Sequence record: OK272476.1
DNA from: Escherichia phage JLBYU24
Strand: one strand, 5' to 3'
Length of the DNA stretch: 64,000 bases
The notes beneath the pieces were generated by a model that saw only the letters and a list, made by a program, of their open reading frames with translations, searched no databases and was not told where the DNA came from. The position numbers and the translations under genes are program-made. Shown piece by piece: positions 16,792-64,000 of this stretch (within the stretch, counting starts at the first letter, position 1; each line of letters opens with the position of its first letter).

Positions 16792-16992
16792 ATGGTACAA
16801 AAATTAATGGCACTTGTTAATGCCATAAAAGGTAATAAAAAACGTATAGCTTTTACTATTTCTGCTATGGTAGGAATTTTACTCTGGAACTTTATTCTAT
16901 CACCTGTTGCAATTGCACATGGTATTAATATTCCAGTAGTTACTCTTGATACATTTGTAGATTTAGCATTTGCTTTAGTTGGGTTAATTTAA
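16792..16992 (+). CDS. small hydrophobic protein on the plus strand
   Basis: 66 aa; strong SD taaggagga 5 nt before ATG; two predicted TM segments; intergenic between genes 56 and 61. Confidence 0.4.
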   Translation: MVQKLMALVNAIKGNKKRIAFTISAMVGILLWNFILSPVAIAHGINIPVVTLDTFVDLAFALVGLI

Positions 16993-18017
16993 ATCTTAGC
17001 ATATTTAGATAACCGCATTTTAGCCATCAACCCCTGGGCAATATTATTTTTCATATATTCCATAATTTGTTCAGGGGTTGCACCTTCCTTTCTAATCATA
17101 TCATTAACATCTTTTGATTTCCAGGGAGATTTATCCCAAAACATAACCCTTTCTCCTGCATCAACTAATTTAGTCATTCGCTTAATAGTGTCAGGATGAC
17201 GAGGTTCATTATCTAAAACCCACACACGTCTATCTTTAAATGGAACAACTTCTAGGTCTAATTGACCACCCGTAATAGCTATACCATTTTCAATAAAAAG
17301 TGAATCTATAGGTCCTTCTAGAACATATACATCACCATCTTTAACTCGTTCAACACCGTAAATTTTTGTTGCCTCAGGATAAGCTTTAATGGTGATATAT
17401 TTTTGAGGAGCATCTTTCTTTAATGCACGTCCTTGAAAAGACTCAGCTTTTCCATTAGCATTATAAATTGGAATAACAAGACGAGGCTCAGAAATTTCCT
17501 TTTTGTATGTTCCCGGTGCTATGCTATTAACTAATTTAGGCCATTCAGTTGTAAACCAAAGATATTTCCATTTATCCTTTGGAATACAACGAGCTTTTAC
17601 ATATTTTATAATTGCATGGTCTTCCGCCAGTTTATCTAATCGAACACATGACGGAAGAGATTTAATTATTTTCTTCTCAGGTTGTTTAGGAAGTTCTTTA
17701 GGTTTTTCTACTGGACGACTTTTACCTTTTTCTTTTCTTATTTCAAAGATATACTCACGATATAAATCAGGTTCAAACTCCTTTAAATATATTCCGATTG
17801 GTGCATGATAGTTACAGTTATAACAATGAATATTTCCTTCATTATTATCACCATAATACCATCCACGAGCTTTATTCTGGTCGGTTTTTGAATCTCCACA
17901 AACAGGACATCTAAACCGTAATTTAAAAGTTGAACTATTATTTACTTGTGTGAATTTAGGTAAATGAGCTAATGCACGGTATGCAAACTCATTATCAATC
18001 CAAGGTATTGATGACAT
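16989..18017 (-). CDS. 61: DNA primase gp61
   Basis: 342 aa; zinc ribbon CPVCG...CYNC; TOPRIM-like core; length matches T4 gp61. Confidence 0.92.
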   Translation of the reverse strand: MSSIPWIDNEFAYRALAHLPKFTQVNNSSTFKLRFRCPVCGDSKTDQNKARGWYYGDNNEGNIHCYNCNYHAPIGIYLKEFEPDLYREYIFEIRKEKGKSRPVEKPKELPKQPEKKIIKSLPSCVRLDKLAEDHAIIKYVKARCIPKDKWKYLWFTTEWPKLVNSIAPGTYKKEISEPRLVIPIYNANGKAESFQGRALKKDAPQKYITIKAYPEATKIYGVERVKDGDVYVLEGPIDSLFIENGIAITGGQLDLEVVPFKDRRVWVLDNEPRHPDTIKRMTKLVDAGERVMFWDKSPWKSKDVNDMIRKEGATPEQIMEYMKNNIAQGLMAKMRLSKYAKI

Positions 18018-18019
18018 TT

Positions 18020-18184
18020 TTACTCTTCTTTTTCTTTAGATTCCTCTTTTTTCTTTTTAGGAATCTGTTCAGGACCTTTATTTACTACAGCGCCTGATGT
18101 TGTTCCAGTAGAGATATTTTCAGGACTACCGCCTGAATCTCCAGCGACCATATCTTCTTTGATAAATTCTTTATATGTTTTCAT
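18020..18184 (-). CDS. small protein with capsid-targeting-sequence-like N-terminus (MKTYKEFIKE)
   Basis: 54-aa ORF below track cutoff; stop overlaps gp61 start; Lys/Glu-rich C-terminus. Confidence 0.4.
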   Translation of the reverse strand: MKTYKEFIKEDMVAGDSGGSPENISTGTTSGAVVNKGPEQIPKKKKEESKEKEE

Positions 18185-18185
18185 A

Positions 18186-18542
18186 TTAACCTCTATTCAT
18201 AAAAGCATTAAAAATTTGGTCATCAATAGATGGCGCAGTAATATTTTCTGCATCATTTAGCAAATCATTAATTTCATCAGATAGCATAACACACGTACCT
18301 TTATTTCCTGTAATTGTTACTGCACAATTACGAACGTTTTCTTTATCAAATTTTAGGTTAATATTTTCATAGTGAAAATCCTTTAATGCCGAATATATCT
18401 TTAAAATGAAATTGTCTTTTACTACAATAAACCCAACCTCACTATTAAAACGCGGTTCATGGAAACTGTAATAAACCTTTTCATCTATAAAATCGTATGA
18501 AATTTTTTCCATTTTTAAATATGAAAATTCAGAACTATACAT
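18186..18542 (-). CDS. hypothetical protein
   Basis: 118 aa; C-terminus SIDDQIFNAFMNRG duplicated in next ORF. Confidence 0.45.
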   Translation of the reverse strand: MYSSEFSYLKMEKISYDFIDEKVYYSFHEPRFNSEVGFIVVKDNFILKIYSALKDFHYENINLKFDKENVRNCAVTITGNKGTCVMLSDEINDLLNDAENITAPSIDDQIFNAFMNRG

Positions 18543-18543
18543 A

Positions 18544-19176
18544 TTAACCTTTATTCATAAAAGCATTAAAAATTTGATCGTCAATAGAAACTTTTACTTT
18601 AGGCTGTTCTTCAAACGGTAATTCATATCCACATATTACAATTTTGTGATCGATACCAAAATACACAGAAGCAATATTATTAATATTATTTTCAGTGAAA
18701 TCTAAATCAACATCAATATCTTTTTGACTAACGCTCAAAGGATAATTAATACGAATAATTCGATTATCTTTAACAAAGATTCCACCGACATACTCTGTGC
18801 TGCGTTTAAAGTTTACACGTTTCCTAAATGAAAAATATTCAGGTTCTTTATGCGCTCGACTCATAGGGCTTAAAGTGTATTCCGAATATGAAATATCAAA
18901 TCCTACACCTTCAATATGAGCCAAAGTGTCATGATTAAACCAATTATAATCGTATGCCAAATCCATTAAATTGTAATATGTGAAAGGCACCGGATTAACA
19001 TCATATGTTGTACCTTTAAAATCTGCCCAGGCAACGATTTCGTTATCTTTAACAATTACAAAAATTGTGCCAATAAGATATCCACGGTTATTTTCATCAG
19101 GTGTTATATTATAACATTGTGCATCAGGAAATTTACCGTATTTAAACGGTGGATTTTTGTGCATATAATAAATCAT
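18544..19176 (-). CDS. hypothetical protein
   Basis: 210 aa; C-terminus SIDDQIFNAFMNKG. Confidence 0.45.
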   Translation of the reverse strand: MIYYMHKNPPFKYGKFPDAQCYNITPDENNRGYLIGTIFVIVKDNEIVAWADFKGTTYDVNPVPFTYYNLMDLAYDYNWFNHDTLAHIEGVGFDISYSEYTLSPMSRAHKEPEYFSFRKRVNFKRSTEYVGGIFVKDNRIIRINYPLSVSQKDIDVDLDFTENNINNIASVYFGIDHKIVICGYELPFEEQPKVKVSIDDQIFNAFMNKG

Positions 19177-62307: not shown

Positions 62308-62781
62308 TTATTTGAACGATTTAACGTACTGAATAGAACCTTTACTATTCACAAAGGCAATTTTACCATTTTTATTATACATGGTAGCAGTACGTTGATA
62401 ACCATAAGTTTGTTTACCAGATTGATAACCAACTAATGCGAAATTATCTTCGCCCATTTTATTCTGTTTAGCGCGAATGCGTTCATGACCATGTGCCATA
62501 AGAACCTTAGCATCACCAGTTGCAATGGATCGACGAGTTTTTTCATCTTCAACTGTATTAACAAAGTCGTCAAATGAATCAAATTTAGCATGAGATTTAT
62601 TATACAATTTTCCATCTACTGCATAATTATATCCCTGTACATCCATCTCAACTTCTGTACCATCATCCAATACAGCAGTGATTTTTTGACCTTTTTTAAA
62701 TTTCAAAAGATCAGTAAAAGATTCAGCAATAATTTGAGAATTAATAGCTGCTTCAGTGATAAATTCTTGATATGTTTTCAT
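62308..62781 (-). CDS. capsid internal protein with capsid-targeting sequence
   Basis: 157 aa; N-terminus MKTYQEFITEA resembles T4 internal-protein CTS; basic. Confidence 0.65.
   Translation of the reverse strand: MKTYQEFITEAAINSQIIAESFTDLLKFKKGQKITAVLDDGTEVEMDVQGYNYAVDGKLYNKSHAKFDSFDDFVNTVEDEKTRRSIATGDAKVLMAHGHERIRAKQNKMGEDNFALVGYQSGKQTYGYQRTATMYNKNGKIAFVNSKGSIQYVKSFK

Positions 62782-63266: not shown

Positions 63267-64000
<734 letters not shown>

Follow-up and report, generated by a model that had tools for sequence, protein, structure and literature searches.

Gene 61.1 of T4-like phages encodes a probable miniature of the gp23 N-terminal region and a candidate substrate of the prohead protease

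The internal proteins IPI, IPII and IPIII of T4 carry a capsid-targeting sequence (CTS), are processed by the prohead protease gp21, packaged into the head and injected. Together with the variable proteins of the internal-protein locus, they begin with a decapeptide of the form MKTY-x-EF-I-x-E, with I-x-E at positions 8-10. The same type of decapeptide opens the product of gene 61.1, a 54-residue protein encoded on the minus strand at 18020..18184 of the stretch analysed here, 64,000 nucleotides of Escherichia phage JLBYU24 (OK272476.1; hereafter the window), which belongs to Tequatrovirus. The internal proteins have late promoters and lie in internal-protein loci, whereas gene 61.1 sits in the early 41-61 operon and has no late promoter. 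Its cargo would be merely 44 residues long, is homologous to the major capsid protein gp23 and not to an internal protein and, in the T4 type, is net acidic; moreover, most gp61.1 homologs carry a helical N-domain and not a CTS.

Three other described systems resemble gp61.1 in part. With the N-terminal region of gp23 it shares a cleavage Glu in register and invariant Gly, Asp and Pro residues, and each is predicted or observed to be disordered alone, but gp23 continues into its N-arm and an HK97-fold body where gp61.1 has a Lys-rich tail. The small gp21 substrates gp67, gp68 and the scaffold protein gp22 are precursors of internal peptides, and gp61.1 would likewise join the core and be cut at I/L-x-E; however, it has no sequence similarity to them, lies outside the 20-24 head block and is not late-transcribed. 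Indeed, when profiles of the N-domain and core of the 61.1 family were compared with the head gene clusters, gp23 was the sole match. Finally, dmd (61.5), tifA (61.4) and adfA (61.2) belong to the same early 41-61 unit and also encode small proteins, but these vary between genera and act on host toxins, whereas gp61.1 is conserved and has no similarity to them. From the comparisons described below, gp61.1 is probably a trans-encoded miniature of the gp23 N-terminal region, made up of a CTS-type decapeptide, a 26-28-residue copy of the gp23 N-fist and a Lys-rich tail, and we see about an even chance that it is a prohead- or virion-associated substrate of gp21.

Similarity of gp61.1 to the cleavage site and N-fist of gp23

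The protein (MKTYKEFIKEDMVAGDSGGSPENISTGTTSGAVVNKGPEQIPKKKKEESKEKEE; ATG start, 54 codons and a TAA at 18022..18020) can be read in three parts, all on the minus strand. Codons 1-10 (18155..18184) encode MKTYKEFIKE, the CTS-like decapeptide of internal-protein type, which closes with the predicted gp21 cleavage site I8-K9-E10 (18155..18163). Codons 11-38 (18071..18154), DMVAGDSGGSPENISTGTTSGAVVNKGP, copy the beginning of mature gp23* (N-fist 66-91 plus G92-P93), and codons 39-54 (18023..18070), EQIPKKKKEESKEKEE, hold a conserved PE-x-(I/L)P and then a Lys/Arg cluster in a tail that is otherwise variable. Residues 2-38 align without gaps to residues 57-93 of gp23 from the same phage type (BLASTP E 8e-8, 15/37 identical). 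The Smith-Waterman score of this alignment is 75, a value reached in 0 of 5000 shuffles (29 +/- 4.4, maximum 54). The register puts I8-K9-E10|D11 of gp61.1 on L63-T64-E65|A66 of gp23 and residues 11-36 on the N-fist, 66-91. We take L63-T64-E65|A66 to be the maturation site of gp23, with mature gp23* beginning AEIGGDHGY. A profile search of the whole PDB, in which T4 gp23 chains were the sole matches, aligned the gp61.1 profile to residues 4-29 of the 456-residue mature chains and to residues 58-94 of the full-length chain; these positions agree, and are thus consistent with the maturation site that we assume.

Profile comparisons gave the same picture. The family contains short forms of 52-64 aa in Tevenvirinae relatives, Krischvirus and Aeromonas phages, and long forms of 120-165 aa elsewhere. 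When their alignments were compared by hhalign with gp23 N-termini of five genera, the short forms gave a probability of 96.5% (E 9.4e-10) and the long forms one of 97.3% (E 1.6e-11), with the cleavage Glu in register in both comparisons and similarity reaching gp23 residue ~101. Furthermore, the 61.1 profile searched against 2596 stop-to-stop segments from six phages returned first itself and next the gp23 proteins, all five of them (E 2e-8 to 2e-6). On these alignments, gp61.1 is a two-part mosaic, in which an internal-protein-type CTS is followed by the gp23 cleavage site and N-fist. The first-pass annotation had described the part behind the decapeptide as Gly/Ser-rich and then Lys/Glu-rich, which is an accurate account of its composition (Thr also contributes to the first portion), but had missed that it copies gp23.

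Residues common to the N-fist and the 61.1 core are G70, D71, G73, I79, G82, G86, A87, G92 and P93 (gp23 numbering). At the DNA level, third-position identity between the two genes is 29%, and identical codons are used at 3 of the 15 identical residues. A recent gene conversion from gene 23 is rejected by this third-position value, and the lack of relatedness between the DNA sequences suggests that the copy is ancient and has been kept by selection at the protein level. Co-variation of the 61.1 core with the N-fist of the same phage's gp23 was uninformative, as the gp23 N-fist is near-invariant and same-phage pairs were not the top-scoring ones. The HK97-fold body is not present in gp61.1, which has 54 residues, similarity limited to gp23 57-101 and no Pfam capsid domain. 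The label "major capsid domain-containing protein", which the identical gene of Escherichia phage JLBYU31 carries (JLBYU31_48 in OK272473.1), is therefore misleading: without the HK97-fold body, gp61.1 is not a capsid protein.

What is described of the N-fist gives this similarity a structural context. The N-fist corresponds to residues 66-91 of gp23* (Fang et al. 2020), and the structural accounts portray it as an unusual 25-residue element on the outer capsid surface that contacts four subunits and, with insertion-domain linkers, makes the Soc site. In the unexpanded prohead, the same accounts place the gp23 N-terminal region to about 105-106 (L106) inside the shell, disordered and probably contacting the scaffold; this region, in which the head-length mutations A66D, A94V and G97S fall, is externalised upon expansion. 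From its register with gp23, gp61.1 residues 11-36 match the part of gp23 that faces the scaffold, is released by the protease and later becomes a lattice-locking element. In AlphaFold models, the window protein shows no autonomous fold (predicted local distance difference test (pLDDT) 61, predicted template-modelling score (pTM) 0.18), and neither does the part of the long forms after the junction (pLDDT <50), which is compatible with a segment that takes up its fold only upon binding.

One could imagine that this module acts from outside, as an N-fist surrogate that docks in acceptor sites left vacant by a missing neighbouring gp23 capsomer, at the portal or other special vertices, gp61.1 then being a small cement or decoration protein and not packaged in the core. 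The residues that determine the shape of the N-fist are shared with the 61.1 core, the N-fist lies on the outer surface with its four-subunit contacts, and the N-fists of five subunits at the portal vertex are described as disordered, with no facing capsomer. The association of a homolog with virus particles and the phyletic co-occurrence of N-fist and gene 61.1, both described below, are also in line with such a role. However, the N-terminus of gp24* is reported to reach neighbouring hexamers, so that no obvious empty penton pocket is left, and the structure papers, in the passages retrieved by term, mention no unassigned density. External docking would also leave the conserved protease site and the CTS-type N-terminus unexplained, and we consider it distinctly unlikely.

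The gp23 N-terminus is reported to direct proteins to GroEL. The Gol peptide presumably lies downstream of gp23 residue about 93, with no overlap with the N-fist; mimicry of Gol towards Lit was set aside, the review placing it just in "a 29-residue region in the first quarter of gp23".

N-terminal decapeptide, protease junction and a homolog in purified particles

That the N-terminus resembles a CTS had been proposed in the first-pass annotation, and the proposal was borne out. The first 10 residues of the 850 ATG-started window open reading frames (ORFs) of at least 30 aa were scored by BLOSUM62 against MKTYQEFIAE, which we take to be the T4 CTS consensus. Gene 61.1 scored 42 and the next best ORF 20, the only higher score (47) being that of the internal-protein gene at 62308..62781. 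This gene, on the minus strand, is a genuine internal-head-protein gene (157 aa, beginning MKTYQEFITE) and served as a positive control within the window. MKTYKEFIKE is also 9/10 identical to authentic CTSs, namely those of JS98 IpIII (MKTYKEFIAE) and of another JS98 internal protein (MKTYQEFIKE), and its I-K-E ending, likewise noted before, fits the published I/L-x-E motif of gp21. Ten residues are reported to be enough for targeting, with positions 4 and 7 dominating targeting and positions 8 and 10 processing (Mullaney and Black 1996, as summarised in PMC9026906); gp61.1 retains Y4, F7, I8 and E10, i.e. all four mapped positions. Positions 1-11 of the family profile gave weak matches (E 0.45-2) exclusively to internal-protein genes among the 2596 segments. 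Co-variation of the 61.1 N-terminus with the CTS of the same phage's internal proteins was looked for in JS98 and not seen.

When gp61.1 is used as a bridge, the CTS-critical positions 4, 7, 8 and 10 fall on F59, F62, L63 and E65 of gp23, here taken from 6176-7741 of contig L002. F62 is not invariant, being Ser in the gp23 of Aes012. This correspondence in sequence hints that the CTS of internal proteins has its origin or its mode of binding in common with the gp23 propeptide end.

The junction itself is conserved far beyond the T4 type. The specificity of gp21 is given as I/L-x-E, multiple sites being typical of its substrates. In 52/52 distinct family proteins (from 61 viral contigs), [ILVM]-x-E stands 0-1 residues before MVAGD, with P2 free (K, N, T, S, F, L, C, I, D, Y, H or Q). 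Among the cluster representatives P1 is universally Glu and P3 is I, L, V or M in about 40/48. Two members read ...LKE|AEVSGD and ...IVE|AEISGD, close to LTE|AEIGGD of gp23. A further (L/I)(T/N)E site is conserved in the long forms ~15 residues upstream of the junction. By this conservation of motif, gp61.1 would be a gp21 substrate, cut after Glu10 in the T4 type. The earlier reading of CTS plus protease site can thus be kept as regards the type of CTS, the critical residues and the conserved junction; what it did not capture was the origin of the remainder, and it treated the ORF as new.

Proteomic data from another phage provide experimental evidence. In purified particles of Yersinia phage phiR1-RT analysed by liquid chromatography coupled to tandem mass spectrometry, Gp036, the 160-aa gp61.1, was identified by 9 peptides with 61.9% coverage and a score of 44 (PMC6893735; Viruses 2019;11:1057, Supplementary Tables S3/S4, where it is listed as a conserved hypothetical protein). 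In the ranking it stands alongside gp2, gp12 and the gp21 homolog, above gp5, gp8, gp53, Inh, gp22 and gp13/14, and well above the enzymes viewed as carry-over by the authors (3 peptides each), who re-annotated it as a hypothetical structural protein (PMC6893735). The word "primase" is not present anywhere in the same supplement (PMC6893735). Gp036 is a long-form homolog encoded directly upstream of the primase gene, with the junction ELPVLE|S-MVAGN; cleavage after E110 would yield the peptide SMVAGNASALGTSPEHNAENIASGTTTGAVVNK, and an uncut junction the spanning peptide ELPVLESMVAGN...VVNK. For the T4 type, gp61.1 peptides would include EDMVAGDSGGNPENISTGTTSGAVVNK, EDMVAGDSGG(N/S)PENISTGTTSGAVVNK for an uncleaved junction and, for a cleaved one, the semi-tryptic DMVAGD...VVNK, as well as GPEQIPK. 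Two other sources gave no information on the family: for T4 heads, the mass-spectrometry supplement by Ali et al. (2017) gives coverage of IPII, IPIII and Alt only, and the fHyAci03 paper contains no proteomics.

Distribution, selection and genomic setting

By tblastn, 61.1 has matches in 1433 phage records, 1236 of them at >=60% identity, although some of the weakest are gp23 itself (e.g. H90); Straboviridae-grade gp23 (>=60% identity) is found in about 1460 records. Nearly all T4-like phages (Straboviridae) seem to carry gene 61.1. A profile search of 1.84 billion representatives returned 50 clusters at 50% identity, with proteins of 50-251 aa and none of the size of a capsid protein. The invariant module of the family is [hydrophobic]-x-E, 0-1 residue, MVAGD-x-GG-x-x-x-NIA-x-G-x-T-x-G-x-(V/I)-x-x-x-GP and a Lys/Arg cluster, the tail cluster KK(K/R)K being found in nearly all members. 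In the long forms the module is preceded by a conserved helical N-domain of ~110 residues (AlphaFold pLDDT 70-89), which has no detectable relatives (best E 0.6 in the 2596 ORF segments, head gene clusters included). Outside Straboviridae, the full N-fist is absent from the gp23 homologs inspected of a cyanophage (Kyanoviridae), an Ackermannviridae phage and phiM9 (Pootjesviridae), and the 61.1 profile has no match there; these three families are not among the reported 61.1 matches, their 41-61 intervals not having been inspected directly. In the sequences compared, the full N-fist and gene 61.1 appear to co-occur in Straboviridae.

Among 15 short forms, Nei-Gojobori dN/dS (the ratio of nonsynonymous to synonymous rates) was 0.14 overall, with 0.086 in the core and 0.21 across residues 2-10, the tail having a pN/pS (the corresponding ratio of proportions) of 0.51; synonymous sites were near saturation. 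The core is under strong purifying selection. A short ORF that looks like low complexity, whose protein was not classified in a T4 time-course, might be taken for a chance resemblance or a decaying remnant without function. Selection on the gene and the proteomic detection in effect rule this explanation out: dN/dS is 0.09-0.21 at near-saturated synonymous sites, the gene is kept across roughly 1200-1400 phage records and the 50 clusters, the gp23 similarity is significant in every control and, with third codon positions so little alike, is preserved at the level of the protein, and the phiR1-RT homolog was detected as a protein.

Three sequence variants deserve mention. In the RB69 reference, gp61.1 is annotated with 92 aa (1387-1665 of contig L004) and is preceded by a 63-aa ORF (1199-1390) that overlaps it by 4 nt, while two RB69-like contigs (L033, L034) encode a single long form of 155 aa with the same C-terminal half; the reference may therefore hold a split long-form gene, frameshifted or mis-sequenced. 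The T6-type protein (P0002 / P0004; 62 aa) ends in a different, still Lys-rich tail, KKKKRNLKKKKSKNVINTLD, which a frameshift within the A-rich stretch of codons 43-48 could explain; the frame would then extend beyond the primase start. Two further entries (P0073, P0090) look like the T4-type protein systematically altered by T-to-I, S-to-L/F, P-to-F and A-to-V substitutions (MKIFKEFIKEDMVVGDLGGNFENIFIGIILGVVVNKGFE...), a pattern that suggests bisulfite-like C-to-T converted reads in a public run, i.e. artefacts and not variants.

In 10/10 Straboviridae genomes inspected (JLBYU31, RB69, Stupor of Acinetobacter, Aes012 of Aeromonas, the Krischvirus FL15, F86 of Vibrio, PspYZU05 of Pseudomonas, phiR1-RT, JS98, where synteny was judged by coordinates, and the window), gene 61.1 lies between the helicase gene 41 and the primase gene 61 on the same strand. 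In the window, gene 61 (16989..18017, minus strand), its syntenic partner, follows directly downstream. The stop-start overlap stated in the first-pass annotation is not there: the TAA at 18022..18020 is followed by AA and then by the primase ATG at 18017, leaving a 2-nt spacer. This spacing suggests translational coupling and, together with the synteny and a Lys/Arg cluster that could bind nucleic acid, would suit an accessory factor of the primase-helicase, the likeness to gp23 being incidental or merely a late off-switch through gp21 cleavage. However, the order of genes is broadly collinear among T4-like phages anyway, which makes synteny a weak argument; family searches linked it to no replication protein; conservation peaks in the gp23-like core; and gp61.1 was detected in phiR1-RT particles, the primase not. 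We regard an accessory role in the primosome as improbable.

The ATG ORF of 54 aa was found on the minus strand just where the first-pass annotation had placed it, but its description as unannotated does not hold. It is the coding sequence JLBYU31_48 in OK272473.1, corresponds to gene 61.1 of T4 (18966..19130, T4p034, UniProt P39228; same length and position), goes by the name gp61.1 also in RB51, RB69, JS98, Aes012 and Stupor, and has its own PHROG family, phrog_1823 (short form; E 2.4e-33, 54/54 positions matched by the window protein). A second family, phrog_2086 (long form), matches residues 8-53 at E 2.3e-16. The PHROG families matching gp61.1 are all of unknown function and carry no functional label, and Pfam and NCBIfam searches with the short and long forms returned no family. 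Our literature search found no functional study of gp61.1, two papers that name it merely listing the gene, and no paper discussing its CTS-type N-terminus, the conserved gp21 site or the paralogy with the N-fist. Already known, then, is that the gene is annotated, that automated pipelines noted a capsid similarity and that one supplement reports a virion homolog.

Gene 61.1 has the same G+C content as the window (0.345), and the 801-bp stretch 17900-18700 around it is 100% identical to JLBYU31 (OK272473.1), from which the window differs elsewhere (coordinate offsets). A Shine-Dalgarno GAGG, read from the sequence, is found at 18190..18193 (minus strand), 5 nt before the ATG of gene 61.1. The stop of the upstream 118-aa ORF (18186..18542, minus strand) lies 1 nt ahead of this ATG. 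In the AdfA-like (61.2) protein of 210 aa, encoded at 18544..19176 on the same strand, the C-terminal half is paralogous to the 118-aa protein (BLASTP 6e-11), and both proteins share the C-terminal ending ...SIDDQIFNAFMN(R/K)G. A 49-nt direct repeat, 94% identical, at 18182-18230 and 18540-18588 covers the stop, the Shine-Dalgarno sequence and the next start at both gene junctions, so that gene 61.1 and the 118-aa ORF have the same translation-initiation region. Repeat and paralog pair look like a repeat-mediated partial duplication within what has been called the "anti-TA (toxin-antitoxin) island". On the other side, a 66-aa hydrophobic ORF on the plus strand (16792..16992) is convergent with the primase gene, whose 3' end it overlaps by 4 nt. 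This ORF, the hypothetical JLBYU31_46 in JLBYU31, looks like a small membrane protein, and RB69 has a similarly placed ORF on the opposite strand (RB69ORF029w).

Proposed role and its bearing on T4 head assembly

Taken as a prohead-associated substrate of gp21, gp61.1 is made from the prereplicative 41-61 operon. It would then persist and join the scaffolding core of the assembling prohead through its CTS and gp23-like segment. A gp21 cut after Glu10, expected from the conserved motif, would free a 44-residue peptide, DMVAGD...KEKEE. This peptide may remain with the head, more speculatively either as an internal peptide or docked at an N-fist position; alternatively, it could compete with the N-termini of gp23 at the scaffold. 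Considered as a free-standing piece of the major capsid protein, gp61.1 would reach the prohead by means of its CTS or of the long N-domain, gp21 would release it, and the Lys cluster would touch DNA or scaffold. A more specific proposal, and a doubtful one, is that its N-fist module completes or modifies the gp23 lattice at sites such as the portal-proximal hexamers, for which no neighbouring capsomer can provide an N-fist, or else vies with gp23 N-termini at the scaffold and thereby adjusts head length or expansion.

Several observations count against a role in the prohead. The gene lies in a prereplicative operon of early replication and anti-defence genes, with a sigma-70-like promoter directly after the gene 41 stop. 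The late-promoter consensus TATAAATA was not found on the minus strand from 15816 (upstream of soc) to 56939; it occurs twice upstream of the internal-protein cluster (63775-63782 and 63788-63795, minus strand). Wolfram-Schauerte et al., in their T4 time-course, list the 61.1 RNA as "early" and give NA (unclassified or undetected) as the class of its protein. There, ipI, ipII and ipIII are also "early-RNA, late-protein", so that early RNA does not exclude a role in the head. As to the protein, P1' is mostly Asp/Glu in gp61.1 and Ala/Ser in the internal proteins and gp23, and the mature peptide of the T4 type is net acidic (7 Lys vs 9 Asp+Glu), unlike the classical basic internal proteins, the tails in other genera being net basic. 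The JS98 N-terminus, MKSFKEVMNE, has drifted from the consensus of the JS98 internal proteins, with F7 replaced by V, and the ~110-aa helical N-domain takes the place of an internal-protein-type CTS in most Straboviridae members. In the phiR1-RT preparation, gp32 and lysozyme (8 peptides each) were also found, so that carry-over of Gp036 is possible (PMC6893735), and in-silico digestion shows that its coverage proves the presence of the N-domain and fits a cut or an uncut junction alike. The silence of the T4 head structure papers on unassigned density, within the passages searched, is a further point against this reading.

The early operon and the missing late promoter could instead point to a mimic of the gp23 N-terminus that is never packaged and acts in the cytoplasm, in counter-defence or regulation, by occupying, or competing for, a factor that recognises the cleavage-site/N-fist region, be it an immune sensor with which the host detects the capsid protein, free active gp21 (gp61.1 then acting as competitor or pseudo-substrate) or a factor in folding or assembly. 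Gene 61.1 sits in the 41-61 interval with dmd, tifA and adfA, the anti-TA island, whose remaining genes have been called "attractive anti-toxin candidates", and its product is disordered and resembles a capsid segment that becomes surface-exposed. Furthermore, nucleotidyltransferases (CD-NTases) of the cyclic-oligonucleotide-based anti-phage signalling system (CBASS) are described as sensing gp21 activity in the cytoplasm through an LPE-containing loop. On the other hand, T4 without acb1 and acb2, with 61.1 presumably intact (the gene goes unmentioned in the paper), is reported to be still "exquisitely sensitive" to gp21-triggered CdnG CBASS, and because of this restriction a decoy against protease-sensing CBASS is unlikely. 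The gene is conserved in every Straboviridae genus sampled, unlike its variable neighbours in the island, which suggests a core rather than a host-specific function; the homolog is abundant in purified phiR1-RT particles; and no similarity to a known anti-defence protein was found in Pfam, NCBIfam or PHROG, the PADLOC library not having been searched. We think a cytoplasmic mimic unlikely.

We return to gp61.1 as a probable new member of the gp21-processed prohead and internal proteins, with an unusual cargo. This reading offers a specific function for a near-universal gene of the T4 family that lacks an assigned role and, if it is true, one of the most thoroughly studied pathways of virus assembly gains a further component. 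As a lattice element of the capsid protein with a gene of its own in the replication operon, gp61.1 would be a capsid accessory of a new kind. It would also connect the targeting tag of the internal proteins with the propeptide of gp23, and gp61.1 might even be the evolutionary source of the internal-protein CTS. On a practical matter, engineered capsids are filled with cargo by means of T4 CTS fusions, and such loading would be affected if a natural protein competed for those sites. Finally, gp61.1 would provide a handle on how the gp23 N-terminus engages the scaffold and on the control of head length and expansion in T4-like phages.

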